Assembly (NCBI GenBank): GCA_963731735.1
Contig: CAVSWO010000002.1
Location: 128,529-192,528, forward strand
DNA: 64,000 nt
From: Candidatus Kerfeldbacteria bacterium
Lineage (GTDB): Bacteria > Patescibacteriota > Patescibacteriia > SBBC01 > CAIJZX01
Reading direction: 5' to 3'
Shown here: positions 30,339 to 59,109 of the stretch, in pieces
Layout: the number at the start of each line of letters is the position of its first letter
Position numbering within the stretch: the stretch's first letter is position 1
Notes under the pieces: model-generated
What the model was told of the DNA's origin: nothing
Seen by the model: only the letters and a program-made list of their open reading frames with translations
Databases searched by the model: none
Position numbers and translations under genes: made by a program

Positions 30339-31817
<1,479 letters not shown>

Positions 31818-38230: not shown

Positions 38231-39239
38231 TTATTTAGTAGAGTGATTTTGTTGATGAATGGGAAGTGTGATCGTGACCGTGGAACCCTTTCCATCTCCG
38301 TCACTAATGATGTCAATCGCACCGTGGTGCTCGTCAATCACGTTCTTGGCAATAAAGAGTCCGAGACCAGAACCGTTGGTGTGCTGGTAAGTGGATTTTT
38401 CGCCTCGGGAAGACTTCTGGAACAACTTCGAACGGTCAGACTTTGGAATGCCAATACCGGTGTCCTTAACGGTGAGGACGACTGCCTCACCCTTAACCCC
38501 CAGACTGATTGTTGTGCCACCGGTATTTGTATATTTCTCGGCGTTATCGATAATGTTCATTAAGACCTCGTGGAGCATCTTTGGTTCGGCCTCTATCTTT
38601 GGTAGCGGTGGCTTCGGGTGATTAAACTTTAAGTAGAGCTCCTTATGGTCATAGTTCGGTTTGAGGTCACCACAAACACTATCGATCATTTCCTCAAGTT
38701 GTACTTGTTGGAAGTCAAAATGAAGACTCCCGCCCTCAAGCTCCATCGCTTTCAGCAAATCGTTGACGATACTAGAAGCCTATTTGCTGAGTCCAACATG
38801 TGGTGCTGTTCGGTTTTCTTTTCGTCCTTCGATAAGCTATCAAAGTCTCCGTCTGCTTGCATAGCCAATAGTCCACGAACAGCTGTCAATGGCGTGCGGA
38901 GCTGGTGGGAAGCAATAGTAAGGAACTCCGACTTATTTTAACGAGTTCTTGCAAATGTTCATTTTTATCGGAAATGTCCCTTGTTTGCTCATCAACCTTT
39001 GAGCGGAGATTCTTGTTGAAGTCTTGAACTTGCTGATAGAGCAAGCCGTTTTGAATAGCAATTGATGCTTGGTCAGCGATGGAATCGAGGAGTTGTAAAT
39101 CACCGGACGTGTAGGCTTCCTTGGTTACCTTTGATCCTAACACAACAATACCAATAAGATGCTTACCAAACGTTAACGGCAAACAGAGCGCCGCTTCAAT
39201 CCTTTTCATATTTACAACGAGCTTCCCCGACCTCGCCAT
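38231..39239 (-). pseudogene. 3' part of the sensor histidine kinase (end of GAF domain, HisKA, HATPase_c), broken by frameshifts
   Basis: 38886..39239 carries the GAF C-terminal part; HisKA (SHQLRTPL-like) reads in another frame around 38760-38940; 38231..38758 encodes HATPase_c (GTGIGIPKSD..., GSGLGLFIAKNV). All are colinear with the upstream 787-aa ORF. Confidence 0.55.
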
Positions 39240-44123: not shown

Positions 44124-44399
44124 ATGTTCAAACGCGTCCCTGTTCAGAAACTCACTGGTCAAGAAACTTTCCACCAGACGGGAGAGAAGAAGTTCAACGT
44201 GTTGGAGTTCTGGCAGTATGGTTTCTCGAACCTGAACTCAAATGTTTTGCGCGGAGCATTGGCCGAGTTCATTGTTGAGAACGCCCTCAAAGACGTAAAG
44301 GACATCAACATCAGAAACCCGTGGGGCGACTCCGATAAAAGATTGAGTTGGCGGAGAGGGAGAGATTCGAACTCTCGATACGGGTTTAACCCCGTATAA
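44124..44399 (+). other. Short ORF that runs into the tRNA-Ser(GCT) gene; likely a gene remnant at the island/tRNA junction
   Basis: 91-aa ORF whose last about 17 codons overlap the tRNA (44349-44442). The first 70 aa look protein-like (FNVLEFWQYGFSNLNSNVLRGALAEFIVENALKD) but no domain is recognised. Confidence 0.3.
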
Positions 44400-44442
44400 C
44401 AGGTTAGCAACCTGCCGCTTTCAACCGCTCAGCCACCTCTCC
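44349..44442 (-). tRNA. tRNA-Ser (anticodon GCT), type II, CCA encoded
   Basis: Minus strand GGAGAGGTGGCTGAGCGGTTGAAAGCGGCAGGTTGCTAACCTG...GAGTTCGAATCTCTCCCTCTCCGCCA; anticodon arm CAGGT-TGCTAAC-ACCTG. Confidence 0.85.
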
Positions 44443-44475
44443 CCGTTTCTGTTGACGATATGTAAAACTGACTTT

Positions 44476-44552
44476 TGGTGCGCCCGACAGGATTCGAACC
44501 TATGACCTTCAGCTCCGCAAGCTGACGCTCTATCCAACTGAGCTACGGGCGC
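44476..44552 (-). tRNA. tRNA-Arg; anticodon reads GCG as sequenced
   Basis: Minus strand GCGCCCGTAGCTCAGTTGGATAGAGCGTCAGCTTGCGGAGCTGAAGGTCATAGGTTCGAATCCTGTCGGGCGCACCA. Arg-type D-arm; anticodon arm TCAGC-TTGCGGA-GCTGA. Confidence 0.75.
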
Positions 44553-44635: not shown

Positions 44636-46651
44636 ATGTCCTCGCTGCTCACCCCGATCGCCGCCTTGCCGCGAATGCGACCTGAAATTGCCAAGAAATT
44701 TTTGGCCCTGGGTTTAACCACCCTCCAAGACGCCTTGTGGCATTTTCCGATTCGTCATCAGGACTGGCGACAACGACTTGCGATTGCTCAACTCCAATCC
44801 GGTCAGCCAGCTACCGTACTGGCCACTATTCTGTCCATCCGGGGCCGTCGCGCCTGGCGCCGGCGTGGCATACACGTAACGGAAGCGGTGGTCACCGATG
44901 AAAGCGGGGCTCGGCTGCGGGTTGTTTGGTTTAATCAGCCCTATCTGGCCACCTGGATCAAACCGAAGCAGGCTTGGTTTTTGTCCGGAAAAATCAGTGC
45001 TAAAAACGAGCAACTCCAAATGCAAAATCCGATGTATGAACGACCGGGCGCCTCACCAACGCACGAAACATTGGTCCCGGTCTATCCGTCGACGGCCGGG
45101 TTATCACAGTGGCAGATTCGGAAAGTTATTAAACGCGCAGTCGAGTACGCCGCTCTGTTACCCGATCCGTTGGATCATGCAATCCAGGTTAAGAATTCTA
45201 TCGTCGATCGCACCACCGCCTTGAAAGAAATACATTTCCCAACCGATGAGGCGAGTGCCACCCGTGCGGTCAACCGCATGAAGTTTGAGGAGTTATTGAC
45301 CTGGCAACTGCGGTGGCGGTTGGCCGAGTCGGAACGTGAAGCGTTGCCCGGTATCCCGATGCCGTTTCAATCCGAAGCGATCCGAGAATTTATTCAACGT
45401 TTACCGTTTAAATTGACGGATGATCAACGCCTGGCCGCTTGGGAAATGTTTCAGGACATGGGAAAGCCGCGGGCCATGTCGCGTTTGCTTCAAGGTGACG
45501 TCGGAACCGGCAAAACCGTGGTGGCGGCGTTGGCGGCACTCTTGGCGATGCGGCAAGGGTGGCAGGTAGCCTGGCTGGCGCCGACCGTGGTGCTGGCCCA
45601 ACAACACGCCACTACTCTCAAGCGGTTTTTTGCCGGCACGGATTTTTCAATCCATGTCCTGGCCGGACATCAACGCGATTCGGTGGCTAGCCAGCCGGCC
45701 ATTATCGTTGGAACCCATGCCCTGTTTACTGCTCAGTTGGACTGGAGTCGATTGGGTTTGGTGGTGATTGATGAGCAGCAACGCTTTGGGGTGGCGCAGC
45801 GGCAGGTACTGCTTGATCGTCCCCAGGCGGCCGGCCTACCGGTCCCACACTTTCTAAGCTTGACGGCGACACCAATTCCGCGAACCCTGGCTTTGTTCCT
45901 GTCTGGTGAACTGGCTATTTCCAGTCTGCACAGTAGGCCTCCCGGCCGCCAACCGATCGTGACGCGGTTACTTGGTTCGAATGACCGGGACCTGGCTGAT
46001 GAGGCTATCCAGGAGACCTGTGACCGGGGTCTACAGGTCTACGTGATAACCCCGTTGATTGAAGAAAGTGATGTATTCGGCGCCACCGCGGCCACCACCG
46101 AGCACGCTCGGCTAGTAAAAAAGTTTCCGAAGCTGCATGTCGGCCTAGTTCATGGACTTTGCACGCCCGAGGAACGGGTCCAAGCGCTTCAAGACTTTCG
46201 CGAACATCGGTACGATATTTTGGTGAGTACGACTGTTATCGAAGTCGGCGTTGATGTTCCGAACGCGTCCTTAATCGTAATATTGGATGCTGAGCGATTC
46301 GGTCTGGCACAGTTACATCAACTTCGCGGGCGCGTGGGCCGCGGAGATCAGGCCAGCCAGTGCTTACTGGTGACCGAAAAAAATTCAGCCGCGGTTCGGC
46401 AGCGGTTACAACGGGTGGCTGAGACTAACGATGGCCTGGCGCTAGCCGAACTCGATTTATCATTGCGCGGCGCTGGCGACTTGTATGGCCTGCGCCAGTC
46501 CGGCTTGCCGGATTGGAAATTGGCGACCTTACAGGATCAGGAATTGATGACTCGGGCCCGCCAAACTGCCGAATCGCTGGATTCCGCAAATCGACAACGT
46601 TTACTCACCGCGCTGAGTGGTGAAACTCAGGTCAACGTGCATCGGGAGTAG
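44636..46651 (+). CDS. recG: ATP-dependent DNA helicase RecG
   Basis: 671 aa; wedge/OB N-terminal domain, helicase motif I GDVGTGKT, DExH box VIDEQQRFG, motif VI QLRGRVGRG. Confidence 0.85.
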   Translation: MSSLLTPIAALPRMRPEIAKKFLALGLTTLQDALWHFPIRHQDWRQRLAIAQLQSGQPATVLATILSIRGRRAWRRRGIHVTEAVVTDESGARLRVVWFNQPYLATWIKPKQAWFLSGKISAKNEQLQMQNPMYERPGASPTHETLVPVYPSTAGLSQWQIRKVIKRAVEYAALLPDPLDHAIQVKNSIVDRTTALKEIHFPTDEASATRAVNRMKFEELLTWQLRWRLAESEREALPGIPMPFQSEAIREFIQRLPFKLTDDQRLAAWEMFQDMGKPRAMSRLLQGDVGTGKTVVAALAALLAMRQGWQVAWLAPTVVLAQQHATTLKRFFAGTDFSIHVLAGHQRDSVASQPAIIVGTHALFTAQLDWSRLGLVVIDEQQRFGVAQRQVLLDRPQAAGLPVPHFLSLTATPIPRTLALFLSGELAISSLHSRPPGRQPIVTRLLGSNDRDLADEAIQETCDRGLQVYVITPLIEESDVFGATAATTEHARLVKKFPKLHVGLVHGLCTPEERVQALQDFREHRYDILVSTTVIEVGVDVPNASLIVILDAERFGLAQLHQLRGRVGRGDQASQCLLVTEKNSAAVRQRLQRVAETNDGLALAELDLSLRGAGDLYGLRQSGLPDWKLATLQDQELMTRARQTAESLDSANRQRLLTALSGETQVNVHRE

Positions 46652-46652
46652 C

Positions 46653-49600
46653 TCAGTTTTGCCGCGGCGCGGTCACCGGTCCCGGCGTGGGAGAAACTTT
46701 CGAGAGCGTACAAATTTTATCATAGTTTGCTTTTGTCCCGAGGACATACCCGATCCCCTGATTTTGTAATTGTTGTAATCGGGCGGCCGAGGCATCCTTG
46801 ATTTTAATGTCTTCGCCCTGACAATAGCGCGTGGCATTACCTGGTCCAAGATAATATCCAAAGGCGGTATAAATTAAATTACGGTTGACGCAGGACGTCT
46901 GGGAAATTTTGGCTAAGTACAGGGCGGCCATCCGGACTTGTGTTTCCAGGTGCGCGTCCAGCCAATCCCGGCAGCTTTTGATCAGCGTATTGGTGGCCGT
47001 ATCTACGTTGTTCGATTCCGGACACGCAGACGGCAACGAACCATTGACCTGCTTGAGGAGCGGAAGCATGGTGCCCACCACAAATTGGCCTATGCCATAG
47101 GCGGTAGTGGCCGCCCGGCCGTCGGCGCCTTTGACCTCGGTGCCGGTGGAAAGCGGATAACCATCGCTCGTTTTTTTACTTTCTTGCATAATAATTGCCT
47201 TGACCAGGAAACGGTCGACTTTGTAGTCACCTGCCGCATCATTGATCCAACGGTTAAGGCCAGACTGGCAGGCTGGACTAACTTTATTGGCGCAAGCCTG
47301 ATCCGGGTCGCCACGCAGCGTCGTTGCCGCGCAAGCCGGCCACTCGCCGACTTGTTTGGCAACTTGTACATTGAGTTCAAACAACTTCTGATCAACCGTG
47401 GCAATCGTTAAACCCTGAAATTTCGTCAATTGCGGATTGATGAGGTTCAGGAGTACCACCGACACCAAGGCCAGAATCACACCGATTATGGCATTATTGA
47501 TGATGTCGCGGGCGTCATTAATCCGTCCCGCGTTCCCGGCTGCGGTGACCCAGCGAATCCCGCCGTAGACCACCATCACGGTTGCCAAGATTCCTACCAC
47601 CCAGATGAATAAGATAAACACCGCCTGAATATATTGGGCGACTGACTCGCCGCTAATTGGTCCGCCCAGAAACCCGGGGAGCGGCACTTCCGGCACGAAT
47701 TGGACAGATTTATCAGCCGAGCTCGGGCTCGATCCGGTGCCTCCGCTGCTGGTGCGGGTGGAGCTTGAACTGGAAACAGCGCTGGCTCCGTTGGTGGTGA
47801 TCGAAATCGGCTGACTGGTAGTCTGATTACCGGCCGCGTCCTGTGCTCGAGCCGTTAATTGGTGGGTGCCGGCCGCCACCGAAGAACTGTCCCAGGATAA
47901 ACTAAAGGGCGAGACCGTACTGGCCCCGATCTGGGTGGTGTCAAGAAAATAGTCGACCCGGGTCACGCCGGTATCATCACTGGCGGCCACCGCGATACTA
48001 ATCTGGCCTTGGACGCTGGTTTGGGTGGCGGGTGAGGTAATCGTCACGCTTGGCGCTTGCGTATCGTTCGTGCAAGCCTGCGTCAGGGCCGGACGGCTGT
48101 TGTTCGTTCCGCAACCATTGGCGTCCGTACAGGTACGTGACTGCTGTCCATTCTGACAGACCGACCAGGCGCTACACTGCCAATTCTCGGTACAGGCGCT
48201 TGGCGGAGGCGGCGGCGCGGCCGCGCTTGGGTCGGCACCGATGTTGGTGCCGTTGCTACCGGCGCCGATAGCCGGCGAACCAGCCTGCAAGGACAAATCA
48301 TAAGTAGCGGCATTTACAAATAGCGGATCGCCTTCAATCGAATTGGCCTGCTCACCACTCAGAGTCTTCCAACCGGCCAACGAGGCGGCGGCGCCGAAAC
48401 TGACACTCCCGTTTCGTTTGTGGTAGAGATTATGATGGGCGGTAAATCCGGTATAGTCGTTGGTATTGTCGATGCTGTTACCGAGTGAACTGACAATATT
48501 GTTCGTCCACACCGTATTAGCGGCTCCTGAAACATCAAAGGTGACGCCGGAACCGTTAGAAGCTTGGTTGTAAAACGTATTGTGGTCATAGGTATTTTTC
48601 GGTTGGAGGTGCGAACCGGTCGGAGAGTTTGAATACAAAATATTGTTGGAAAAAACATTATTCTGGGCAATCGCTTGGATCCAGAGCGCTTTCCCATTAT
48701 CGGCAATGATCGTATTTCCGCGGAAGGTATTATTCGAAGGAAAACCCTTGAAGGCCGCTCCTTCGTTGCCAGAAACCATGGTCAAACCACCGCGTTGGTC
48801 ATTGACCGCATGATTCACGTGAATGGTATTGTTGGTGAAAGTCCCGCCCGTCCAGCCGTCACGAATCAGGAAACCAGTGGCCTGTCCGGTGGCAATCACT
48901 AGATTATTGTCAAACACATCGTTCGTGCTGCAAGCCAAATAGACGGTCAGCGGATTGTCCGTCAGCGTGTCGATGGTATTGGTAATCGTATTGCCGGTCA
49001 CCACGCGTCCCGAAGCAGGACAGGGATGCGTCGCGTCCCCATAATTATGAAAGTCAATAAAGCGACTGGCTGATCCCGTGATGGTGTTATTTTCCAGGTG
49101 GAAATTGAGCGCCTGGTTCCACCAGGCACACGTGGCGTCGTCAATACATCCCCCGTTGGTATTATCCGAGATTACCCCGCCGTTAATCGTGTTCCCGCGA
49201 ACCGTGATACTATCACCGCCGTAGTTTCCAAACTCTCCAAAGGTGGCGTTGGCAAAGGTGATGTCCGAGTTGTTATCTCCGTAGTTTCGAACCCCGTTAG
49301 AGCTGGAAAAATTGCTGATCTGAATTGTATGATACGGGCCCGATCCGTAATCGGCGACCTCGACCGCATCTCCCCCAGTGGCCGTGATGGTTTTTCCGTT
49401 GCCATCGAAGGTGACGTTGCTAGCGCGAATTGAAAAACACGTACCGGACGATGAAACGTTGTTTTCCAGCCGATAGCTCCCCGCGTTCGTTATTGTTTGA
49501 CAACCGGTGAGACTTATGACCGTTTGGGCATCGGTCAGGGATGCGAACACGGCAAGCAACGCGACCACGCCCAAACCAAATACCCAGGCCGACGTTCGCC

Positions 49601-49673
49601 AGGCAGACCGGCGTTTACCGGAGCGCAATTTTTTGGATTGTGCCGGTGTTTGCATCCACAAAATAGAGGGCAT
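46653..49673 (-). CDS. Large T4SS-associated cell-wall protein: signal peptide, right-handed beta-helix repeats, Ig-like domains, pilin-like two-helix membrane module, C-terminal lytic transglycosylase (VirB1/SLT-like)
   Basis: 1006-aa intact ORF. PbH1-type repeats (GNTI..N.I..N). SLT motifs IIMQESKKTS and AYGIGQF in the last 250 aa. Hydrophobic hairpin FILFIWVVGILATVMVVYGGIRWVTAAGN...IIGVILALVSVVLLNLI. Confidence 0.65.
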   Translation of the reverse strand: MPSILWMQTPAQSKKLRSGKRRSAWRTSAWVFGLGVVALLAVFASLTDAQTVISLTGCQTITNAGSYRLENNVSSSGTCFSIRASNVTFDGNGKTITATGGDAVEVADYGSGPYHTIQISNFSSSNGVRNYGDNNSDITFANATFGEFGNYGGDSITVRGNTINGGVISDNTNGGCIDDATCAWWNQALNFHLENNTITGSASRFIDFHNYGDATHPCPASGRVVTGNTITNTIDTLTDNPLTVYLACSTNDVFDNNLVIATGQATGFLIRDGWTGGTFTNNTIHVNHAVNDQRGGLTMVSGNEGAAFKGFPSNNTFRGNTIIADNGKALWIQAIAQNNVFSNNILYSNSPTGSHLQPKNTYDHNTFYNQASNGSGVTFDVSGAANTVWTNNIVSSLGNSIDNTNDYTGFTAHHNLYHKRNGSVSFGAAASLAGWKTLSGEQANSIEGDPLFVNAATYDLSLQAGSPAIGAGSNGTNIGADPSAAAPPPPPSACTENWQCSAWSVCQNGQQSRTCTDANGCGTNNSRPALTQACTNDTQAPSVTITSPATQTSVQGQISIAVAASDDTGVTRVDYFLDTTQIGASTVSPFSLSWDSSSVAAGTHQLTARAQDAAGNQTTSQPISITTNGASAVSSSSSTRTSSGGTGSSPSSADKSVQFVPEVPLPGFLGGPISGESVAQYIQAVFILFIWVVGILATVMVVYGGIRWVTAAGNAGRINDARDIINNAIIGVILALVSVVLLNLINPQLTKFQGLTIATVDQKLFELNVQVAKQVGEWPACAATTLRGDPDQACANKVSPACQSGLNRWINDAAGDYKVDRFLVKAIIMQESKKTSDGYPLSTGTEVKGADGRAATTAYGIGQFVVGTMLPLLKQVNGSLPSACPESNNVDTATNTLIKSCRDWLDAHLETQVRMAALYLAKISQTSCVNRNLIYTAFGYYLGPGNATRYCQGEDIKIKDASAARLQQLQNQGIGYVLGTKANYDKICTLSKVSPTPGPVTAPRQN

Positions 49674-50865
49674 CTTCGGTTGGGGTTAGGCGCAATTGGG
49701 TCGCGCTGTAGCGCTGATTGAGGTTCTGATCAACCGGCCGGGCTACAATTTCCGAGCTACCACGCAATAAATCAATTTTGTAAATATTGTCCGGAATTCC
49801 AGTCGCCAAAGACGGTTGCGGGCCCGAACCCGGATCAAGGTAATACGGCACAGCACAAAAGACATCCACGCCGCTGGCTGAAAAGACGCATTTGTCGGCC
49901 GTAGTGTTTAGCCCCAAATCCACCAGTCCGCTGCCGATTGATTCCGGTGAAGCATTCATGATGTATAAATGCGGGATTTCATCGGTGGTCGGACCGTAGG
50001 CGCTATACAGCAGCTTGCGTCCGTCCGGTGACCACTTTGGATCAAAGCCCCGACCCTGGATCGTGGCGGACGGAAAGTTTTCGCCGTTCGCCCCTAAAAA
50101 GATGATTTCAGATAATTGATCGCTGGTACTTTTTTCATAGGTTGCAATTATCTGGTTATTCGGTGACCACAGCGGCGTAACTTTATCCGCGTTCGATCCC
50201 AAGTGTTCGACCGCCTGCGATTGTGATCCATCAGGTTTCGAAACCATCAGCCACTGATCATCGGTGTTGCCCGGATTTAAATACTTTGAGACCACCTGAT
50301 CAGACTGCGCGGAAAACGAAAAGTCGTTTAATTCATTCGGGAGCGTGGTTTGTTTATCCTGCGTGAAATCATAGAGAATTTTCGCGCCGTCCGGAAAACT
50401 GATTATGGCCTGGCTGCCATCAGCCGACCAATCGACGTTTTGAACATCTTTATAGGTCGCGTCCGAGAGCGGCGTAGTCGTTAAGCCATCGGCGCTGAGC
50501 ATGAAGAATTTACCGCTGGTCGCGTCGTAAAACCGAAAATCATTTGAAGTAGTCGAGACCAGTTGCTCCGAGGTAGTGTCGACCACGGTCTGGCTCAAGG
50601 TCGCGCCGCCGTTCGCCACCGCGTCGGGTTGGGTTTGCCCCTGTAAGCCATTTACAATCGGCAAGGCGTTGACGTTGCTGGGCGTTTGGCCGTTGATGTT
50701 GCCATTGTTCACGTTCGGCAGTCCATTCACCACCACGCCGTTCGCGTTATTGACTGGCGTGGTCGGCGTCGAACGGAAAAAGACTAGCCAAATCACGTAG
50801 AAAATAGCTAGCACCACCACCACGAAGGCGGAAATCAACAGTATTCTACGAAGCGTGGGATTCAT
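49615..50865 (-). CDS. Membrane-anchored TolB-like beta-propeller protein
   Basis: 416 aa; N-terminal TM, Asn/Gly-rich linker, PD40-type repeats (WSPDGRKLLYSA, WSADGSQAIISF). Confidence 0.5.
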   Translation of the reverse strand: MNPTLRRILLISAFVVVVLAIFYVIWLVFFRSTPTTPVNNANGVVVNGLPNVNNGNINGQTPSNVNALPIVNGLQGQTQPDAVANGGATLSQTVVDTTSEQLVSTTSNDFRFYDATSGKFFMLSADGLTTTPLSDATYKDVQNVDWSADGSQAIISFPDGAKILYDFTQDKQTTLPNELNDFSFSAQSDQVVSKYLNPGNTDDQWLMVSKPDGSQSQAVEHLGSNADKVTPLWSPNNQIIATYEKSTSDQLSEIIFLGANGENFPSATIQGRGFDPKWSPDGRKLLYSAYGPTTDEIPHLYIMNASPESIGSGLVDLGLNTTADKCVFSASGVDVFCAVPYYLDPGSGPQPSLATGIPDNIYKIDLLRGSSEIVARPVDQNLNQRYSATQLRLTPTEDALYFVDANTGTIQKIALR

Positions 50866-51938
50866 ATACCGTATTGGGTAGGTGACAAGTCATAGGTTTT
50901 ACAAAGAGTTCGTGGGCCCAGCAATTGACATTGATCGCCAAATCCCGCGAGAGCACAATATGCATTTGAACCACACGTGTCCTTCGTCCCATAGACGGGC
51001 GCATCTCCAAGGTTAACGACTTTCCCACAATCCAGGTTGCTATCAAAGAAAAGTTGGAATTGTGGGGTGCCAGCCTTGATGCATATAGCTACATTACTGA
51101 AAACCTGATCCGTTCCGTTGGTAGGAACACAGTTGCCGGTGTAACGCCCAGTTATATTACAGACTTTTCCCGCAACTGGACAGCTCACGCCCAGACATGG
51201 GTTCCCCTTCCCGTCATCGCTGAGCGAACCACAACTGGTGGTATCTGTACAAGCCGGGAGTGTATTTGGATCAAGCGGAACTTGATTACATGTCCCCTCC
51301 CATTCATTGCTCAAGTCCTTGGCACTATAGCTGTAGCAAGTATTCGTATCTTTGAGTTGGCAGCAGATACCTTTGACGATGTTGGCGGCACACGACGGTT
51401 TCCCCGGATTAACCAGGGTTTTGGCCCCTCCGTAACAGGCACCCGACGAAACCTGCGTCATGCCGGTTGGGCAGGTCAGATTTTCAAAACATTTGTAGGC
51501 ATCATTGTACGTCGCAAATCCGGGTTTTACTTGTTGGGCTTGCTTGATCTCCGGTAACCCCAAGCTTGTGAATTGCGGACTAATTAAGTTCAACAGCACG
51601 ACCGAGACCAGTGCAATAATTATCCCGATGATCGCATTATTAATAATATCGCGCGCTTGCGCGACTTGGCCGGGATTGCCGCTGGCGGTAACCCAACGAA
51701 TGCCGCCGAAGATAACCATCACGGTCGCAATGATGCCAACCACCCAGACAAAGTACGTGTAAATTACTTTGACGTAGGTGCCGATAAAATCATCATTCAC
51801 TTCCTGCGGTCCGGTAAATCCCGGCAGACTGACTTCGGGAGTAAAGGTGACGCCGCTGGACGTGGTAGCCGCCACGGCTGGCGTCACGGCTGTCAGCCCC
51901 GCTCCAACCATCAGCAAACTAAACAAGAGCCGCTTCAT
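50862..51938 (-). CDS. Secreted/membrane protein with pilin-like two-helix module and Cys-rich C-terminal domain
   Basis: 358 aa; signal peptide; module VTFTPEVSLPGF...FVWVVGIIATVMVIFGGIRWVTASGNPGQVAQARDIINNAIIGIIIALVSVVLLNLISPQF is homologous to the module in the 1006-aa protein. Confidence 0.6.
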   Translation of the reverse strand: MKRLLFSLLMVGAGLTAVTPAVAATTSSGVTFTPEVSLPGFTGPQEVNDDFIGTYVKVIYTYFVWVVGIIATVMVIFGGIRWVTASGNPGQVAQARDIINNAIIGIIIALVSVVLLNLISPQFTSLGLPEIKQAQQVKPGFATYNDAYKCFENLTCPTGMTQVSSGACYGGAKTLVNPGKPSCAANIVKGICCQLKDTNTCYSYSAKDLSNEWEGTCNQVPLDPNTLPACTDTTSCGSLSDDGKGNPCLGVSCPVAGKVCNITGRYTGNCVPTNGTDQVFSNVAICIKAGTPQFQLFFDSNLDCGKVVNLGDAPVYGTKDTCGSNAYCALAGFGDQCQLLGPRTLCKTYDLSPTQYGI

Positions 51939-52624
51939 TGGGTTAAGAGTGATCCAAAGCTCTTGAGTAAGTCCGCTAGCGCACCTAATCCCAGTTGGGC
52001 AAAATCAAGCGGATGGAATATGAAGTACAAAATGAAAATGATCAGACCCCAAAGAATGCCGGTAATGAGGCTAATAAACACAACTTTGCTGGTCCGGTAG
52101 ACCGCCTCCGCCGCCGAAAAGCTTGGCACGAGCGGCACGTGCAAATCGCGCGCGGCATCCATGCCCGGCGGCAAGGGAACGTTCGACGGAACGCCGATTT
52201 GGCTGATACCGTTTAGCCAGTGGCCGCCCACCCAGCGGATCAGAAAAAGCGCGATGACCACTGGTCCAATGACTATTGATAAAAGTCCAAAAAATTGAAA
52301 CGAGAGATCCTCGACCACCTCGTGGACCGTCTGCCAGGCCCGACGCCAGGCTTGGAGTGCGATTTGGTTGGCTTCCGCCACTGCCGTTTCCGGATTGAGT
52401 GACAGGCCTTTCCGCCGTACGCTTTGCAGCGCTCGCAGTCGGGCTGCCCGTTGGAGACGATTGCCTTCACCCGGCGCACTCAACGCCTCTGGTTGCTCGG
52501 CCAAGGTTCCTGGCACCGGCTGGCCGGATCGCTGAGCATCAAATCGCTCCTGCCGGGCTCGATTTAGTCGGTAGGCGCGATCGGCTTGGATATTGGCGCG
52601 TTCAACTGCGGTAGCTTCGGCCAT
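51935..52624 (-). CDS. Hypothetical membrane protein in the T4SS cluster
   Basis: 229 aa; basic/Ala-rich N-terminal region, then 3-4 TM helices. Confidence 0.45.
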   Translation of the reverse strand: MAEATAVERANIQADRAYRLNRARQERFDAQRSGQPVPGTLAEQPEALSAPGEGNRLQRAARLRALQSVRRKGLSLNPETAVAEANQIALQAWRRAWQTVHEVVEDLSFQFFGLLSIVIGPVVIALFLIRWVGGHWLNGISQIGVPSNVPLPPGMDAARDLHVPLVPSFSAAEAVYRTSKVVFISLITGILWGLIIFILYFIFHPLDFAQLGLGALADLLKSFGSLLTQ

Positions 52625-52627
52625 AAT

Positions 52628-53185
52628 TTATGTTGCTTCCCACGACGCCGCGTTAATTTTCCATTCGTCGCTCTGTTTGACTAGGTCCAGAAAGAGTTTT
52701 TGGGTCTTGACGGTTTCATCAGTCCCAGTGGTTTCAACCCGTTGCGTGTCGACGGTCACGGCCGCGTTGCCAGATGTTTGATTGGTAATCGAAATCACAA
52801 TCACTTTAGTGGTCAGGGCGTGATAGGGCGTGATAGTTTGGTTGATCCGACCCTGGGAAATAGTTCGATCAAGAAAGCTGTTAAAGTTACTGGTCCCCCA
52901 GTTTTTACTGGCTTCCAAGTTGGCGAAATTATTTTGGTTGCTTTCGTTGCCGTACTCTTCGGTAAAGTTTCGAGCCACGTATCGAATCGCCACCGCGTCC
53001 GGATCTTCCGCTTGGTTGGTGTTCAGATTGGTATTTATGACTTCCACGTTGGCTGAGTTCGTGTTGGCAATTTTTTCGACCGCGTTCTGAAGGCTTGGAT
53101 TACGATCCACGAGAAATAACACGATGATAGCCGGAATAATGAGTACGGCCAGCGCGATTGAGATAATCAGAAGTCGACGTGACAT
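52628..53185 (-). CDS. Membrane-anchored protein, possibly VirB8/PrgL-like
   Basis: 185 aa; N-terminal TM followed by a soluble domain; sits immediately downstream of VirB4. Assignment is by position and topology only. Confidence 0.35.
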   Translation of the reverse strand: MSRRLLIISIALAVLIIPAIIVLFLVDRNPSLQNAVEKIANTNSANVEVINTNLNTNQAEDPDAVAIRYVARNFTEEYGNESNQNNFANLEASKNWGTSNFNSFLDRTISQGRINQTITPYHALTTKVIVISITNQTSGNAAVTVDTQRVETTGTDETVKTQKLFLDLVKQSDEWKINAASWEAT

Positions 53186-53188: not shown

Positions 53189-55135
53189 TTAGGCGTTAAT
53201 ATCTTCCGGACTCGAGACGGCCGTACCAACATTGGTGGCCGTTCCGCTGGCAATTGATTGCTCAAACTCCTTTTTCGAACGCTCAATTTCAAGCAATTGG
53301 GCGGGGTTGGTAGTCACGATTTGGTCCTCACTGTACGATGCCACGACTTTGATGGCCGCGTGTTTTGGTCCGGCGAAGAAGATACCTTCGCCGACTCCGG
53401 CTTCAAGCAGCAGGTAGCGCTCTTGTTGAGTCAACAGGAAGGTCTTGGCGACGATATCAATTGAAGCCGGCGACTGTTTCATCAACAACGTTAGGGCTGA
53501 GTTGTTGATAATGGCTTGTCCGTACGGCGACAGTAAGAAGTCATTGACGTCCTGGGTGATGGTCGTCACGCCCAGGTAATATTTACGCGAACGTTTGACC
53601 AGGCCGAAAATAAACTTGGCCGAGTCTTCGTGCTGCATTAACCACCAGGCTTCATCAATCACCAGGATACGTTTTTTGAGACTCGAACGCGCCACGTTCC
53701 AGATGTAGCTGACCACAATCGAAATCCCGACCGGCCGTAATTCATCTTCCAGATCTCGGACCGAGAACACTACCAGCTGGTTCGTCAATTCGACGTTGGT
53801 CGGACTGTTAAACAAACCGGCGAAGGTTCCTTGGGTAAACTTTTTTAAACGCTCCGCCATCCGTTCTCCACCCGTCATGCCGCCCAGCACTTCTTCAAAA
53901 TCCGACATCACCGGCACTTCAATATTCTGGAGATCGGCATCGGGGGTAATATCTTTCTTGGCATATGTTTCCAGCAGCGCCCGATCCAGGATTGAATCTT
54001 CCTCGTGGGTCATGTCACCCAGCATCAACCGGAACATAGATTTCAACGTGATGACCGCCGAGCGAATAATATCGGCCGTACTTTCGTCGCTGCTAATGGG
54101 TTTCGGCAGATCGAAGGGATTAATTTTACTATCTGAATTGAGTGAAATGTTAATATAGGTGCCGCCGACCGCGTCCGACAGATATTTATATTCGTGCTCC
54201 GGGTCAATAATGATGATGTCCGTTCCGAACATCATGCTGCGCAAAATTTCCAGCTTGACTGCGTAGGATTTACCGGAGCCGGCCGTCGCAAAGACGGTAT
54301 AATTCGCGTTCTGGAGCGAGAATCGATCAAATAGAATCAGCGAGTTATTGTGTCGGTTAATCCCATATAAAATGCCGTTGTCGCTCGACAGGTCGGCGGA
54401 CACAAACGGGAAACTCGAGGCGATCGGCGACGAATTCATATTGAAGGTCACCTGGAGTTGGTCCATGCCAATCGGCAAGGTTGAGGCGTATCCTTGTTCG
54501 GTTTGGAAGAAGGCGCGTTTCGAATATACCAGTTTCGAGCCGAATAAGGCTTCAACTTGGCTGGTTACTTCATCCAATTGCTTCTGCGTATCGGCGTACA
54601 GCGTGACATACAACGCGAATTGGAAAAATTTCTCCGTGCCCTGGGTTAAATCATCGCGCAGTTTTTCAATGTCGCGGAGGGCCGTTTCGCGCACCGGATC
54701 GCGCGGCGCGCCTTTTTGAATATCGGCTGAGAGCTGGGCTTCCAGCGCGCCAACTTTGTTCTTGAGTTGCTTTAAGATCAAATCCGAGGGGATCGGATAG
54801 AAAAACATGGATATATCCAGCGGGGCGTTAAAGTTGATGATCGGCGCAAACCAGCCGACCGCGATATACCGCGGATAGGTCACGACAAATAATGTTCGCA
54901 GGAATTGGCCGTTCAGGCGCAGGGTATTCGGATCAACCTTGAGTGCCGCCGGTGCGATCAGGTCACGGACCGTAACCACTCCGCGACGATAAATCCGCTC
55001 GGCTTCAATTAGTTCTTTTTCATCGGCCGGGTGCGGAAGCTCGCGACGCGGTGATTGCCGGTCGTCCTGGAAAATTTTCGGGCTCGAAAGGTTGATATCA
55101 GGCATTGCGGTCGTCTCCTTTAGATTTTTCATCAT
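53189..55135 (-). CDS. VirB4/TrbE/PrgJ-family T4SS ATPase, C-terminal ATPase portion
   Basis: 648 aa; Walker A FATAGSGKSYAV, Walker B VIDEAWWLM. Confidence 0.75.
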   Translation of the reverse strand: MMKNLKETTAMPDINLSSPKIFQDDRQSPRRELPHPADEKELIEAERIYRRGVVTVRDLIAPAALKVDPNTLRLNGQFLRTLFVVTYPRYIAVGWFAPIINFNAPLDISMFFYPIPSDLILKQLKNKVGALEAQLSADIQKGAPRDPVRETALRDIEKLRDDLTQGTEKFFQFALYVTLYADTQKQLDEVTSQVEALFGSKLVYSKRAFFQTEQGYASTLPIGMDQLQVTFNMNSSPIASSFPFVSADLSSDNGILYGINRHNNSLILFDRFSLQNANYTVFATAGSGKSYAVKLEILRSMMFGTDIIIIDPEHEYKYLSDAVGGTYINISLNSDSKINPFDLPKPISSDESTADIIRSAVITLKSMFRLMLGDMTHEEDSILDRALLETYAKKDITPDADLQNIEVPVMSDFEEVLGGMTGGERMAERLKKFTQGTFAGLFNSPTNVELTNQLVVFSVRDLEDELRPVGISIVVSYIWNVARSSLKKRILVIDEAWWLMQHEDSAKFIFGLVKRSRKYYLGVTTITQDVNDFLLSPYGQAIINNSALTLLMKQSPASIDIVAKTFLLTQQERYLLLEAGVGEGIFFAGPKHAAIKVVASYSEDQIVTTNPAQLLEIERSKKEFEQSIASGTATNVGTAVSSPEDINA

Positions 55136-55847
55136 CCTTCAAACTTGATACTTCTTCGAGTGACATGGCTTTGACTGACTGCAGTTTTTGCTGGCGCGAA
55201 GTTTCCGGATTGTATGAATTGTAATACAACTCGATCAAACTTTGGGTATCGAGAATAATTGATTTGAGCCCGGCCGAATCCAGGGCATTCATAGTTCCAT
55301 CCACCCGTTTATACAGTTCCCGCCGGTAATCTTCGAATTGTTTTTGCTTGAGGTGAATTGTTGACGTCGGTGAAAAAACGTCAATCACTTTTGAAAAGAA
55401 TTTCGCCGGCCGGTCGATTTTCGGTGAATACGGAATCACCAGGTAAAAACGCTTGGTCATAATATCGGCAATTTGGACCAGTTCGCCCACAAATTGTCGA
55501 TAGTCCTGGGTTTGCATCCGCAGGAGTTCGTTGGTTTGTTTCTTCTCAACATCCTTGAGTTGGTCCAAGTAGGCGTCAATATCGAGTCGGCGCGATTGGA
55601 CGACAATTTGGAGCGGAAAATCAATGGTGTTTAAGAATTGGGTATAGGCGCCAATCACCGCGTCCTGCTCTTCTTCGGATTTGAGCGAGAAGTTAATTGA
55701 GGACACCAGCAACACAGCCCGCAAAGTTCCGTCGCGCAGCACCACCGTATCATCCCGAATTTCCAAAATATCAAGATACTGCTGCGTCGAGGGAGCCGAT
55801 TTTGTCCGGCGGGTAGTCTTTTCCTTTTTGGTGTCCTGGTCGGCCAT
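55098..55847 (-). CDS. VirB4 N-terminal domain as a separate ORF (start taken at Met MADQD...)
   Basis: DGTLRAVLLVSSINFSLKSEEEQDAVIGAYTQFLNTIDFPLQIVVQS resembles the VirB4 N-terminal region. It overlaps the ATPase ORF by 38 nt in another frame. Confidence 0.5.
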   Translation of the reverse strand: MADQDTKKEKTTRRTKSAPSTQQYLDILEIRDDTVVLRDGTLRAVLLVSSINFSLKSEEEQDAVIGAYTQFLNTIDFPLQIVVQSRRLDIDAYLDQLKDVEKKQTNELLRMQTQDYRQFVGELVQIADIMTKRFYLVIPYSPKIDRPAKFFSKVIDVFSPTSTIHLKQKQFEDYRRELYKRVDGTMNALDSAGLKSIILDTQSLIELYYNSYNPETSRQQKLQSVKAMSLEEVSSLKDDEKSKGDDRNA

Positions 55848-55851
55848 GGGC

Positions 55852-56352
55852 TTATCGGTTATCGAATGGATTGGCTGGTTCGGGTTGTTTTGGAAGCGAT
55901 TGGCCCCAATACAACAATTCTTCGTCTTCATGATAGGCGCCGCCGGTATCGACCAGCAATGATAATTGCGCCAACTTCGTTTCGCTTAAGGGTTGCTTAG
56001 AAGGAATTGGAGGCGGTGGCGGCGGTTCACGTCGATACTGAATTCGTTCGCCCAATTGATTGTTCCACAGGCGGAGGCGCGGATTCTTGAGTGATTGCAA
56101 AAGATTCAGCAGGAACAAATGGAATGGCCGGCCGTTTACCCGAACAAACGCGAATGAAACCATGGCCACTAAAATCCCAAACCCGGTAAATAGGAATGGT
56201 CCGGTTTGATTGGCCAGGCGAACCATCAGTTGATACGACCCGACCAAAAGCCCGACACCGACTAAAATGATGATAAACTGCCGAACCGTGACCGGACCGA
56301 TCACTTTGTCTTCGACTTCGATAAATTGTGGGACGACGTATTGTTGGGGCAT
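55852..56352 (-). CDS. Small two-TM protein, VirB3/PrgI-like
   Basis: 166 aa; two hydrophobic helices (FIIILVGVGLLVGSY, FLFTGFGILVAMVSFAFV); immediately upstream of VirB4, as in Gram-positive T4SS loci. Confidence 0.4.
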   Translation of the reverse strand: MPQQYVVPQFIEVEDKVIGPVTVRQFIIILVGVGLLVGSYQLMVRLANQTGPFLFTGFGILVAMVSFAFVRVNGRPFHLFLLNLLQSLKNPRLRLWNNQLGERIQYRREPPPPPPIPSKQPLSETKLAQLSLLVDTGGAYHEDEELLYWGQSLPKQPEPANPFDNR

Positions 56353-56356: not shown

Positions 56357-57250
56357 TTAGGCGTGCACGCGACGATTTAAGTCAGCCAGCGAAGCAAATT
56401 CATGTTCGGATAAATAGGGTTGATTGTCTTTAGCGCGGCGACGAATAACTTCACTGATCGGGATGTTGTCATCAAGACTTTGTCGTCCCATGGCCAAGTA
56501 CAGTTGATAGACTGAGCTTTGACGCCAACCCGCAACCGCTTCCGCCCAGAGTCGAAACGATTCGTGTTTGAGATGCTCAAATGTTTCAAAGAGGTGTTTG
56601 GTTGAATCAGTGGCGCCTTGACCCAGGCGTCGAAATTCAGCCACCGACATGCTTTTGAGTTCTTCGGCCGGACCCAGTGTCCGGGATGGTTGGGTGATGT
56701 CGGCAACTTTGGGTCGATCGCTCCCCCGACTCCGTGGCCAGGACGGACTTGACTTGACCGTTGGCGGCGGTTGTTGCGGCACGGGCTTAGCCGGTGGCGG
56801 GGCCGGGATATCCGGCGGCCGCACGATCGGCCGGCTAGGTCGCGGCGCTTCAGTCACCGACGGCATCGGTGACTTGGGCGGAGTTTGATCGGTCGACGGG
56901 AATACTCGCGTGAGCGGCGGTTTCGGCGCCGGGTGTTCAGCTTGGACAGTCGGAACTTTGGGGGGCGGCGGGGCCGGAATCGGTTCGGGCTTGGCTACCA
57001 TACCGCGACTCTTGAGCTGCTTGGCCTGTTCGGTCAGGCTGGCCACGACCTGCTCGGCCAAATCGCGATCTAAACCGAGGCCGCCAATTTTCGGATCACG
57101 CGCCATGACGTCAATTGTTTGGTCAGACGTCCGAATATCTTTCAATCGGCTTTTGAAAATCGCGTGCGCCCGCTTCGTTAAAAATTCATCCGGAAAAGCG
57201 AGTTGGTGCTGCTGAATGATTTGCTCAGCAATCGCATCGAGATCCTTGGG
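56357..57250 (-). CDS. C-terminal domain of a proline-rich T4SS-cluster protein (reading frame upstream of about 57250 is unreliable)
   Basis: ORF 56357..57535. Protein-like sequence (DLDAIAEQIIQQHQLAFPDEF...) only in the 3' two-thirds; the 5' part is an Arg-rich out-of-frame reading of a Pro-rich tract. Confidence 0.4.
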   Translation of the reverse strand, partial: PKDLDAIAEQIIQQHQLAFPDEFLTKRAHAIFKSRLKDIRTSDQTIDVMARDPKIGGLGLDRDLAEQVVASLTEQAKQLKSRGMVAKPEPIPAPPPPKVPTVQAEHPAPKPPLTRVFPSTDQTPPKSPMPSVTEAPRPSRPIVRPPDIPAPPPAKPVPQQPPPTVKSSPSWPRSRGSDRPKVADITQPSRTLGPAEELKSMSVAEFRRLGQGATDSTKHLFETFEHLKHESFRLWAEAVAGWRQSSVYQLYLAMGRQSLDDNIPISEVIRRRAKDNQPYLSEHEFASLADLNRRVHA

Positions 57251-57501
57251 AGCCTGCGTTGCTGTCGCTAAATGTTGTAAGTTTTTTGGCTTGGGCTTCA
57301 ATTTCTTTGGCGTCTTCTTCTGAATATGCCTGGGTCGGGGCTTTGGCGCCAATCGGGGCTTCCGGGGTGGCCATCGCCGGAACTTTCGGCGGCGGGGGTA
57401 GTGGCGGTGAGCTCGCAACGGATTGGGGCGGCGGGGTCGGTTTGATTTTTGGGGCGGCGGGAACCGTCGGTGTCTGGACTGGTTGCGATTGTCCGAGTGG
57501 T

Positions 57502-57909
57502 TTAAGCTTCGGCGCGACGGTCGGTTTTTTGGCAATTGGCAAGTTCGGTGGTGCCGCGGGACGCGGCGGATTGTTGACGGCGCTGGGAGGCGTTACTTTT
57601 GTGGCCGCCCCGGCTGGCGGCTCGAGATTTTTCGCCTAAATATTCGCTGACCTGGCCGAATACGCTTTTGCGAAGCTCAGCGACGACGGCGTCCGCCTGC
57701 GGCGGGGCAAGTTCAGCCTCGCGTTGGATTGCTTCAGACAGCGTCGCCAGCGGAATTTCCTTCACCATCACTCGCATTACAAAACCGGCCACGTCGAGTT
57801 GCGGGTAGGTTGCCTCAAGCTTGTCAACGGCCGCTAAGGCTCTCGAGGAAGCGACGGTATCGCGAATCGAACGGGGCAACTGATGAAATTGTTGCCAAAT
57901 ATCAGCCAT
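57502..57909 (-). CDS. N-terminal domain ORF of the same proline-rich protein (probably one gene split by frameshifts in the Pro-rich linker)
   Basis: 135 aa; MADIWQQFHQLPRSIRD.... It is followed by overlapping ORF 57225..57542, which encodes a plausible Pro-rich linker (PKLKPLGQSQPVQTPTVPAAPKIKPTPPP). Confidence 0.4.
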   Translation of the reverse strand: MADIWQQFHQLPRSIRDTVASSRALAAVDKLEATYPQLDVAGFVMRVMVKEIPLATLSEAIQREAELAPPQADAVVAELRKSVFGQVSEYLGEKSRAASRGGHKSNASQRRQQSAASRGTTELANCQKTDRRAEA

Positions 57910-58083
57910 CTCGTTAGCGTTTTGGAGAATAAGAAAAAATGCCCAGCGATAAAATCACCGGGGTTGGGAATTTCTTGGGAAAACTTTGATATTCAATCTC
58001 TAACGAGAACATGAAGTGTTTGTTTGAGTGGATTTATTATAGCACAAACCCACCCGGACCGCAAAGCCTGAAAGTGGAAAAAA

Positions 58084-58377
58084 TTACTGGAAATATTGCT
58101 GGATTCGCTCGCTTTCGGCTTCGACCGTCGAACCATCATATTCCCCCGCATGACGCGATGTGCCGGAATAAGAGGGTTGTTTCTGGTCGAGGTGGAGATT
58201 CAGACGAACCCTTTCCCCTTCCTCCTGGAGATAGACATGAAATCGCGGGTAGGCGTAGCTGCTCAGCCGACGAACGTACGAAATATCTCCGGATCGCGGA
58301 TCACGTATCATTGAATAACCCGCCCGTTGGAGTGTCAGGCGGGCTGGTTGAGCCAAGCGGCGAAGGCGCAGGATCAC
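58084..58377 (-). CDS. Small hypothetical protein
   Basis: 97 aa; protein-like composition (YPRFHVYLQEEGERVRLNLHLDQKQPSYSG...); overlaps the upstream gene by 4 nt. Confidence 0.4.
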   Translation of the reverse strand: MILRLRRLAQPARLTLQRAGYSMIRDPRSGDISYVRRLSSYAYPRFHVYLQEEGERVRLNLHLDQKQPSYSGTSRHAGEYDGSTVEAESERIQQYFQ

Positions 58378-59108
58378 GCCGGCAGCTGGTCAGTTTGTTT
58401 GAGGATGCGCCGAATCTTCCGTTTGAGCGCGTTGAGTTCAAACGGGTTGAGATCTTGGGTATTGACGGCATAACTAACGGCATCCAGGTCCTGCATTAGA
58501 CGCTCGCCATCAGGCTGCAGCAATTCACCGCTTTTCATGGCTGCTTCGACTTGGCTGGATAATCCGGTTAAACGGAGGAGGATGTCAGCCTTGCCGCGTA
58601 GGGTCGCAGCCTTGGTATCAAAGTCACGGAGCAACGGATGCGCATCTTCATCGAAGGCGACCGATGGTTCTATTGAATCCGCCGTGGCTGCTGCCGCAGC
58701 TGCGTTCGGTTCAGGTTGCGGGGCATAGACTTCCGGAAAGTTTTTTTGGGCTTCAGCTAAGGCCGCGACCGGGTCTCCGCCCAGGTTCTTGATCGTTGAT
58801 TGAATGTCACCCAGGTACCATTCCATTGGCAGCATGATCCGGCTTAAAATTTCACGCGTTAAGTTTTTTGCGTGATCAGTATCAGTATGAAGTTCATTTT
58901 GAATCTGTGTTTGTAATTGTTCGGGAGTAAATTCTTGCGCCACCAAGCTGGCTTCCAACCGGACCATCTTACGTTGCTGATCATCACTTAGTTTGTACTG
59001 CTTGCTAAGCGCTATGTTTATATCAGACAACTCTCGGTGGGCCAGCACTTCCTTTAAGAGCGGGGGAAATTCGAGATAGAGTTTGTAGTAAGCTTTTGGA
59101 CTGACCAT
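58374..59108 (-). CDS. Hypothetical protein in the T4SS cluster
   Basis: 244 aa; mostly alpha-helical-looking; starts 2 nt after the TrbL-like gene stop. Confidence 0.45.
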   Translation of the reverse strand: MVSPKAYYKLYLEFPPLLKEVLAHRELSDINIALSKQYKLSDDQQRKMVRLEASLVAQEFTPEQLQTQIQNELHTDTDHAKNLTREILSRIMLPMEWYLGDIQSTIKNLGGDPVAALAEAQKNFPEVYAPQPEPNAAAAAATADSIEPSVAFDEDAHPLLRDFDTKAATLRGKADILLRLTGLSSQVEAAMKSGELLQPDGERLMQDLDAVSYAVNTQDLNPFELNALKRKIRRILKQTDQLPA

Positions 59109-59109
59109 A

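Follow-up and report, generated by a model that had tools for sequence, protein, structure and literature searches.

The 64,000-nucleotide stretch of DNA analysed here (the window) comes from a Candidatus Kerfeldbacteria bacterium (GenBank assembly GCA_963731735.1, contig CAVSWO010000002.1, positions 128,529 to 192,528 of the forward strand) and contains a type IV secretion system (T4SS) locus. The genes of the locus encode, in order, a 927-amino-acid (aa) membrane protein, proteins of 244 and 135 aa, a Pro-rich 392-aa protein, PrgI, a TrsD/TraC-like protein, VirB4, proteins of 185 and 229 aa, protein B, a beta-propeller protein and protein A, followed by the convergent gene recG. The order is the same in the three relatives that were compared, a groundwater contig (L001), a Ca. 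Kerfeldbacteria metagenome-assembled genome (MAG; L003) and L011. We focus on protein A (1006 aa; 46653-49673, minus strand) and protein B (358 aa; 50862-51938, minus strand), whose genes lie 3.5 kb and 1.2 kb, respectively, from the VirB4 gene. Both carry a pilin-type two-helix hairpin, fused in A to a beta-helix/Ig head on one side and a lysozyme-like domain on the other, and in B to a Cys-rich domain. We propose that the hairpin may well be a constant platform that presents exchangeable domains at the secretion machine.

Proteins A and B share a single module

Comparison of A with B by BLASTP gave a single significant segment (A629-752 against B14-126; 53% identity, 70% positives, E 5e-29), with no further similarity between the two proteins, the remaining segments all having E > 1. 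The DNA encoding the two modules is 72% identical (130/181 positions, ungapped, E 6e-25), and 61 of the 104 columns in the pairwise module alignment are invariant. A preliminary description of the window had placed the module at A655-755 (nt 47409-47711) and B25-125 (nt 51564-51866), and these coordinates are correct. Its consensus agrees with the pairwise alignment, and its further statements, that the modules align closely, that similarity is still visible in the nucleotides and that A and B are otherwise unrelated, are all borne out by the values above. The flanking domains were likewise described correctly: A has Beta_helix and Big_7 domains on the N-terminal side and a sub-threshold SLT match on the C-terminal side, and the C-terminal part of B is Cys-rich. 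A tblastn search of the window and an unfiltered hmmsearch of all its six-frame open reading frames (ORFs), with a profile of 46 diverse modules, found these two copies only.

A pilin-type hairpin

The module was assigned to a family by Pfam. Both proteins score above the gathering threshold of PF18895, T4SS_pilin (26.6 bits), A with 31.8 bits (residues 676-745) and B with 40.5 bits (57-119). By its profile match, the shared module is thus the VirB2-like pilin-type hairpin of T4SSs represented by this family. In A, the module spans residues 653-755 (47409..47717, minus strand) and consists of an FxPEVxLPGF motif, a first transmembrane segment (TM1), a conserved loop, AAGNAGRINDARD, a second transmembrane segment (TM2) and the sequence INPQLTKFQGL. 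In B, it spans residues 26-127 (51558..51863, minus strand).

Hydropathy analysis gave two strong transmembrane segments in each protein, those of the A module lying at 677-710 and 721-750. AlphaFold models built from homologue alignments place helices at 675-711 and 715-745 in A and at 51-84 and 89-119 in B, separated by a turn of 3-4 residues. Averaged over the 46 diverse modules, the loop between the helices has 3.0 positive and 2.0 negative charges. The two-helix topology in the preliminary description is therefore reproduced by hydropathy, charge and modelling. Given a cleaved signal peptide, two transmembrane segments and a net-positive loop point to a hairpin with both termini outside and a cytoplasmic loop (N-out/C-out), which is the topology of VirB2.

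The evidence for a relationship to the classical conjugative pilins is weaker. A Pfam scan of A and B gave no match to PF04956 (TrbC/VirB2) at E <= 0.1, and a search of PDB with the 46-module profile did not find the solved pilins, returning only chance matches to MacB and the HtrII transducer. Alignment of the modules with seven verified VirB2/TrbC proteins from plasmids, using hhalign, gave a probability of 27% (P 6.6e-4), with the match in register over TM1, loop and TM2. The module's direct homology to TrbC/VirB2 is thus weakly supported. An indirect bridge is provided by the pilins SEML1_0018 and SEML1_0019 of Southlakia, which match both PF18895 and PF04956 (Wang 2023 Table S2, PMC10633639), and by a match of the B module to NF045849, the Mbov_0395 pilin-like family of mycoplasma integrative and conjugative elements (ICEs). 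The latter scores 24.3 bits (E 1.8e-5), below the cut-off of 40, and covers positions 9-77 of the 80 in the profile. Of the earlier proposal that the module has the conjugative-pilin form, the family assignment, the two-helix models and the placement in a virB4/prgI locus stand, and the register of the VirB2/TrbC alignment agrees with it, but its direct link to VirB2/TrbC finds little backing in the profile comparisons.

Protein A: a beta-helix/Ig head, the hairpin and a lysozyme-like domain

Gene A encodes a signal peptide, a beta-helix/Ig ectodomain, a Ser/Thr-rich linker, the pilin hairpin and a lysozyme/SLT-like domain. Residues 1-49 (49527..49673, minus strand) form a probable Sec signal peptide, read from the sequence and from a hydropathy segment at 25-50, with a basic n-region (KKLRSGKRRSAWR), an h-region and a putative cleavage site after TDA and before Q. 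They are followed at 50-493 (48195..49526, minus strand) by a predicted right-handed beta-helix ectodomain, within which Pfam Beta_helix matches residues 224-393 (26.9 bits). Residues 494-608 (47850..48194, minus strand) contain a Cys motif (CTENWQCSAWSVC...TCTDANGCGT), also present in beta-helix homologues, and then an Ig-like domain (Pfam Big_7, 541-608, 66.7 bits, E 2.9e-18). Free-standing secreted Patescibacteria proteins of 640-870 aa (P0002-P0016) are homologous to residues ~1-630 of A and have no hairpin. A Ser/Thr/Gly-rich low-complexity linker at 609-652 (47718..47849, minus strand), where the model starts with a predicted local distance difference test score (pLDDT) below 50, leads into the hairpin.

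Gene A, read from its first ATG, shares 59 nt with the end of the beta-propeller gene upstream of it (49615-49673), and the L001 and L011 orthologues of the two genes are ~4 nt apart. Translation of A may therefore really begin further downstream, which would leave the core of the signal peptide unaffected.

The C-terminal part of A (residues 756-1006; 46656..47408, minus strand) is a predicted lysozyme-like domain of the goose-lysozyme/SLT type with E-S, GxGQ and Y..G motifs, and it is conserved jointly with the hairpin in proteins of 380-517 aa on many contigs. Among 17 homologues, the E of IMQES (E831 of A), the G and Q of YGIGQ and the Y and G of YYLGPG are invariant. The motifs align with IISRES and AAYNTGDG of goose lysozyme, and a profile of the domain matches goose-type lysozyme 3gxk with E 6.9e-4 over a region that spans the catalytic Glu. 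This part of the AlphaFold model has a pLDDT of about 90. In a Foldseek search of PDB its best match was MltF (probability 1.0, E 0.03), followed by Tse3, autolysin, endolysin and SltB3, all with weak E-values. Pfam SLT (PF01464) matches residues 810-906 with 16.7 bits, below the cut-off of 21.3, and a relative, P0050, has a precomputed PF01464 match. From the invariant motifs, the fold matches and the goose lysozyme profile match, we therefore propose that the domain is lysozyme/SLT-like despite its sub-threshold Pfam score, and a predicted peptidoglycan glycosidase comparable to VirB1. In the model of A, the tether between the hairpin and this domain is short (~15 aa).

Most orthologues of A lack the beta-helix block. 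However, all three parts are present in P0100 (935 aa), from which we conclude that the architecture of A is real.

Protein B: the hairpin and a Cys-rich domain

Gene B encodes a signal peptide, the hairpin and a Cys-rich beta domain. The probable Sec signal peptide (residues 1-24; 51867..51938, minus strand) is supported by a hydropathy segment at 4-24, a model helix at 2-15 and an AxA motif read in the sequence (MKRLLFSLLMVGAGLTAVTPAVA followed by A). Beyond the hairpin, residues 128-358 (50865..51557, minus strand) form a beta-rich, fast-evolving domain with 20 Cys, 14 of which are invariant among 15 homologues. Foldseek comparison of the B model with PDB gave no convincing fold match for this domain, and profile comparison gave weak links to Cys-rich domains at the equivalent locus position in relatives. 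The Cys-rich flanking domains fit an extracytoplasmic location.

One hairpin carries many different domains

An exhaustive profile search of 1.84 billion cluster representatives gave 33,591 matches at E <= 1e-3, 3,827 at E <= 1e-10 and 95 at E <= 1e-30. The family picture below is drawn from the best 150 of the 33,591 matches. Of these 150 representatives, 149 are at least 278 aa long, nearly all reaching 300 aa, and have extra domains, and neither A nor B has the small stand-alone size of the described Patescibacteria pilins (about 100-190 aa). Classes were defined by BLAST clustering of the parts outside the hairpin and by Pfam scans of class representatives. The C-terminal classes comprise an SLT-like class (48 members), a Cys-rich class of about 187 aa (32 members), Peptidase_M23 (15 members), the Cys-rich type of B (15 members), Peptidase_M15_4 (5 members) and several smaller Cys-rich classes, and a common N-terminal Cys-rich domain is also found among family members. 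Every fused class has representatives above the gathering threshold of PF18895. The module had been suggested to anchor or present different extracellular domains, and this survey of other loci, together with the exchange described below, bears that out: the subfamily is large, SLT-like, M23, M15 and several Cys-rich payloads are found on one and the same hairpin, and the data fit either anchoring or display on a pilus.

Two narrower searches gave nothing. A word-indexed search for homologues, with only the 110-aa module as query, found no matches, a limit of its sensitivity given the 33,591 matches from the exhaustive search, and tblastn of the module against 72,556 plasmids returned none.

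Eight family members (P0073, P0093, P0119, P0133, P0152, P0168, P0176 and P0184) have 3-8 tandem PF18895 hairpins in single ORFs, with up to about 16 transmembrane helices. Some of them end in a Cys-rich domain, and Pfam confirms six stretches in P0093. These proteins could be covalently linked pilin oligomers or polyprotein precursors.

Domain exchange at the end of the hairpin and constraint within it

The clearest case of exchange comes from two near-identical genomes, in which an SLT-like domain and an M23 domain are swapped exactly, right after the hairpin. P0042 (hairpin and SLT-like domain) and P0049 (hairpin and M23 domain) are 86% identical over residues 1-257 and unrelated beyond, and they are encoded at the equivalent position of loci with identical gene order. 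The DNA of the two loci is 94.9% identical up to the end of the hairpin, has no similarity across the hydrolase segment and is 99.5% identical from recG on. In other pairs of SLT-class and M23-class proteins, similarity ends 5-8 residues past the hairpin.

The aligned regions are L001:1-14502 and L011:16-14341, in which the T4SS flank (94.9%) and the recG flank (99.5%) differ in identity, apart from the hydrolase cassette. The mosaic pattern suggests that co-occurring groundwater strains have recombined across the locus.

Conservation was measured in 138 single-module representatives. Mean column entropy is 1.15 bits in TM1, 1.03 bits in the loop and 1.07 bits in TM2, compared with about 2.2-2.4 bits in the N-terminal flank and 1.84 bits after TM2, with little helical periodicity. 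Across genomes and classes the modules are 50-90% identical, against about 30-44% for the SLT-like domains. The conservation of the hairpin and loop, with so little periodicity, therefore points to specific contacts with other proteins, both around all faces and on the cytoplasmic side.

The surrounding locus

The VirB4-type ATPase (648 aa; 53189..55135, minus strand; Pfam P-loop_TraG, AAA_10 and DUF87) is 84% identical to the copy in the Ca. Kerfeldbacteria MAG (L003). Upstream of it, a 277-aa TrsD/TraC-like protein and a 166-aa PrgI/VirB3-like protein are encoded at 55098..56352 (minus strand), with a Pfam PrgI match of 41.4 bits and weak NCBIfam matches to TrsD and Mbov_0397. Further upstream (56357..61893, minus strand) lie ORFs, syntenic in L003, for the Pro-rich 392-aa protein, the 135-aa and 244-aa proteins and the polytopic 927-aa membrane protein. 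Pfam matched nothing in these four proteins, and the 927-aa protein is, by position only, a candidate for a VirB6-like component. The 392-aa protein (56357-57535, minus strand) is Pro-rich and very basic in its N-terminal half, and its C-terminal part is conserved, with 46-48% identity in L001 and L003. Two more Cys-rich, secreted-looking ORFs lie upstream of the gene for the 927-aa protein (61883-63070 and 63565-63978, both minus strand). Neither has a Pfam or NCBIfam match, and they may belong to the same surface apparatus.

Between VirB4 and B, two conserved small genes of 185 and 229 aa (51935..53185, minus strand) are syntenic in L001 and L003 and matched nothing in Pfam or NCBIfam. The gene between B and A encodes a 416-aa TolB/PD40-like beta-propeller (49615..50865, minus strand; Pfam PD40, weak NCBIfam TolB), which occupies the equivalent position in L001, L003 and L011 with 57% identity. 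The conserved end of the locus is recG (44636..46651, plus strand; Pfam RecG_wedge, DEAD and Helicase_C), convergent with A. The presence of recG beside T4SS genes has been published for class ABY1, to which Kerfeldbacteria belong (PMC12102498). No plain small pilin was found in the window, nor within about 10 kb in L001 and L003, and Pfam and NCBIfam scans recognised no protease gene in the locus. A scan of a genome collection with derived peptide patterns gave one locus only, the patterns being too specific.

Several features of the window lie outside this locus. Genes for tRNA-Ser(GCT) and tRNA-Arg(GCG) are found at 44349-44552 (minus strand), just beyond the recG end, and one for tRNA-Ser(TGA) at 23164-23253. 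A 787-aa protein (39196-41559, minus strand) combines, unusually, a ThiF/E1-like adenylyltransferase domain (123-291) with a histidine-kinase-type 7TM (seven-transmembrane) region (386-603). A 507-aa ORF (41552-43075, minus strand) has no Pfam match at E <= 0.01 and contains an SSSGSSGKP motif that by eye is reminiscent of adenylate-forming enzymes. Its overlap of 8 nt with the start of the ThiF-7TM gene suggests an operon. The G+C content is 0.43-0.45 at 26001-32000, with a second dip to 0.44-0.47 at 36-44 kb, and about 0.50-0.55 elsewhere. These low-G+C segments may be acquired or differently constrained.

Comparison with known systems

Pairs and arrays of VirB2-like PF18895 pilins near virB4 have already been published for Patescibacteria (PMC12102498). 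With the module in a named family and such arrays described, the bare observation of the module is therefore not new; what appears to be new here is the fused architecture. Among the papers and supplements that we searched, an incomplete coverage, none mentioned a fusion of a pilin with a hydrolase or an ectodomain, and automated Pfam annotations of such architectures are already in databases.

The closest published counterpart is the SEML1_0014-0019 array of Southlakia epibionticum (PMC10633639; PMC12102498), which belongs to the same Pfam family and has the same placement beside virB4, prgI and trsD. As in the present locus, no relaxase is evident nearby. The Southlakia pilins are small and stand-alone (about 104-185 aa), whereas both hairpins of the present locus are fused to large ectodomains. 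The Southlakia hydrolases are separate genes of the same essential T4SS locus, SEML1_0006 and SEML1_0007 (lysozyme-like and M15-like), so the fusions described here join partners that are separate elsewhere. The present subfamily is also set apart from the published pilins by its additional N-terminal FxPEVxLPGF motif and an INPxLT motif after TM2.

The VirB1 and VirB2 proteins of Agrobacterium-type systems (mating-pair-formation class T, MPF_T) likewise couple a wall-cutting GH23-type domain functionally with a two-helix pilin, and in all 7 of the 7 plasmids examined a transglycosylase gene lies directly upstream of virB2. However, VirB1 and VirB2 are separate proteins there, VirB1 being soluble and periplasmic, whereas A is one polypeptide with the reverse order, pilin and then glycosidase, and the sequence similarity of the module to MPF_T VirB2 is marginal. 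The RP4 TrbC prepilin is also of the VirB2 type and has extra C-terminal sequence past TM2, but that extension is a few tens of residues long and is discarded, whereas the domains here are predicted to be folded, are 180-260 aa long and have conserved catalytic motifs.

In monoderm bacteria, PrgK of pCF10, TraG of pIP501 and TcpG of pCW3 are membrane-tethered peptidoglycan hydrolases (SLT, LytM/M23, CHAP) at the secretion site (cited in PMC12102498). They have a single N-terminal transmembrane anchor and several hydrolase domains per protein. Compared by description, their enzyme repertoire overlaps the payloads found here (SLT-like, M23), but the hydrolases here are single and lie downstream of a pilin-type hairpin. 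Protein A combines a signal peptide of the cleavable type with an internal hairpin of two helices, and Pfam found no CHAP or M23 domain in it. The mycoplasma ICE proteins of the Mbov_0395 family resemble the B module at the sub-threshold level given above; unlike A and B, they are small and unfused. The neighbouring TrsD-like gene of the present locus (55098-55931, minus strand) weakly matches the Mbov_0397 VirB4 family from the same elements. These ICE matches fit the reported MPF_FATA ancestry of the Patescibacteria system, and they suggest that some monoderm ICEs may already have pilin-like hairpins. The usual statement is that Gram-positive T4SSs are without VirB2 homologues, and such hairpins would run contrary to it.

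Discussion

Taken together, our results are best accommodated by a model in which the hairpin is a constant N-out/C-out docking platform for the secretion machine that tethers or presents exchangeable ectodomains. We assign this model a probability of about 0.6. A and B would be exported through Sec by means of their cleavable signal peptides. TM1 would then stop transfer, the short, conserved, net-positive loop would remain in the cytoplasm, and TM2 would restart export, placing the N- and C-terminal parts both outside the membrane, with the hairpin docked to the VirB4/VirB6-like machine. A would thereby present a wall-spanning beta-helix/Ig head on a long Ser/Thr-rich stalk and a glycosidase on its short (~15 aa) tether; as a fused VirB2-like/VirB1-like protein, it would limit wall cutting to the secretion site. 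B would display a disulfide-rich beta domain that evolves fast and possibly serves in binding or host specificity. The similarity of the modules, their family, the helical hairpin, the synteny, the variety of fused domains, the conserved catalytic motifs and the domain swap are observed in the data; the topology, the docking, the enzyme activity and the biological role are inferred from them.

Several points weigh against this model. The hairpin part of the AlphaFold models has only moderate confidence (pLDDT about 70-80), and the topology is predicted from hydropathy, charge and these models. Docking to VirB4 or the VirB6-like protein is predicted from gene neighbourhood and conservation, and the members of the family are described here from sequences and models. 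The SLT assignment is sub-threshold in Pfam, and the structural E-values (0.03) are weak. The share of fused and plain proteins was seen within the best 150 of the 33,591 matches. Finally, it is not obvious why both helices of a pure tether should be so extremely conserved, and this leaves polymerisation some room.

That last point leads to the strongest rival, in which the hairpins are true polymerising pilin subunits, extracted by VirB4 to form a pilus or wall-spanning conduit decorated with payloads that bind and breach the host envelope. The modules belong to a family that the literature treats as VirB2-like pilins, and their near-uniform conservation around both helices and the loop would be expected if all faces pack on neighbours. 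In F and T pili, both termini of the VirB2-type pilin lie on the filament exterior, so terminal fusions are geometrically allowed. Since no plain small pilin was found either in the window or, within ~10 kb, in L001 and L003, a pilus made by this locus would need A/B-type proteins, although other parts of the 0.82-Mb genome may encode plain pilins. On the other hand, a five-start filament would have little room for a domain of 180-650 aa on each subunit, the SLT-like domain has only a short tether, neither the PDB profile search nor hhalign detected homology to structurally solved pilins, and no pilus has been seen for any Patescibacteria T4SS (PMC12857230). We consider polymerisation unlikely on balance, and a more elaborate form of it rather less likely still: VirB4 would extract payload-bearing pilins and polymerise or extrude them as a T4SS conduit, so that hydrolases, heads and Cys-rich binders become an enzyme- and adhesin-studded drill through the host wall, with payloads exchanged between strains at the hairpin boundary to track host wall chemistry. 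Somewhat more doubtful again is the idea that A and B are precursors, in which a protease cuts the conserved INPxLTxFxG after TM2, freeing the hydrolase or Cys-rich protein and leaving a small pilin. This junction motif is conserved in all classes and recurs between the modules of the tandem proteins, the segment that follows it has low model confidence, and the domain swaps break exactly there. VirB2-type pilins also offer a precedent for C-terminal processing, the C terminus of RP4 TrbC being trimmed before cyclisation. Yet the scans of the locus recognised no protease gene, the motif might just as well serve as an interfacial packing element, and the argument for cleavage draws on sequence and models only.

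Two further explanations carry far less weight. In the first, the Pfam name would be misleading, and the module would be a generic signal-anchor of two helices that has nothing specific to do with pilins or secretion. Composition alone can make hydrophobic hairpins match, and the absence of significant matches to PF04956 or solved pilins, with an hhalign probability of 27%, would fit such an anchor. However, both proteins exceed the PF18895 threshold, and the 50-90% module identity across genomes, together with the conserved polar loop, is far above compositional similarity. All loci examined show strict linkage to virB4, the Southlakia pilins match both PF18895 and PF04956, and there is the sub-threshold match to the mycoplasma ICE pilin-like family. 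Conservation and synteny have already largely refuted the generic anchor, which we regard as very improbable. Alternatively, the similarity of A and B might stem from recent duplication, gene conversion, or an assembly or gene-calling artefact within a single genome: 72% nucleotide identity is still visible, and gene A resembles three genes joined. Across genomes, though, modules cluster by position and class and not by genome, within-contig module pairs are 56-72% identical compared with 70-94% for orthologues, and many independent contigs carry pilin-SLT and pilin-Cys architectures. We accordingly rejected concerted evolution of the two modules, or gene conversion between them, since orthologues group by class and position, and likewise an assembly or gene-fusion artefact for A, given the like architecture of P0100, the many independent pilin-SLT contigs and the uninterrupted ORFs of A and B. 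The module's conservation and its grouping by class and position therefore exclude this second explanation for practical purposes.

The T4SS is essential in Southlakia, the sole genetically tractable Patescibacterium, and its function has been called completely unknown (PMC11665869; PMC10633639). A survey of Patescibacteria lists VirB2 by hidden Markov model (HMM) coverage only, and most of the genomes with VirB2 in it lack VirB1 (PMC12102498). Our results suggest that in loci of the ABY1/Kerfeldbacteria type the wall-cutting function is present but hidden in a divergent, hairpin-fused domain, interchangeable with M23 and M15, and such a hidden fused hydrolase may explain the apparent absence of VirB1. 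Many HMM-counted 'pilins' would then be large multidomain surface proteins, which changes the reading of pilin arrays. Experimental handles are offered by the catalytic Glu and the cytoplasmic loop, both conserved, and by the junction motif. The natural exchange of the cassette between otherwise near-identical genomes suggests that the payload is under selection, perhaps in connection with host range.

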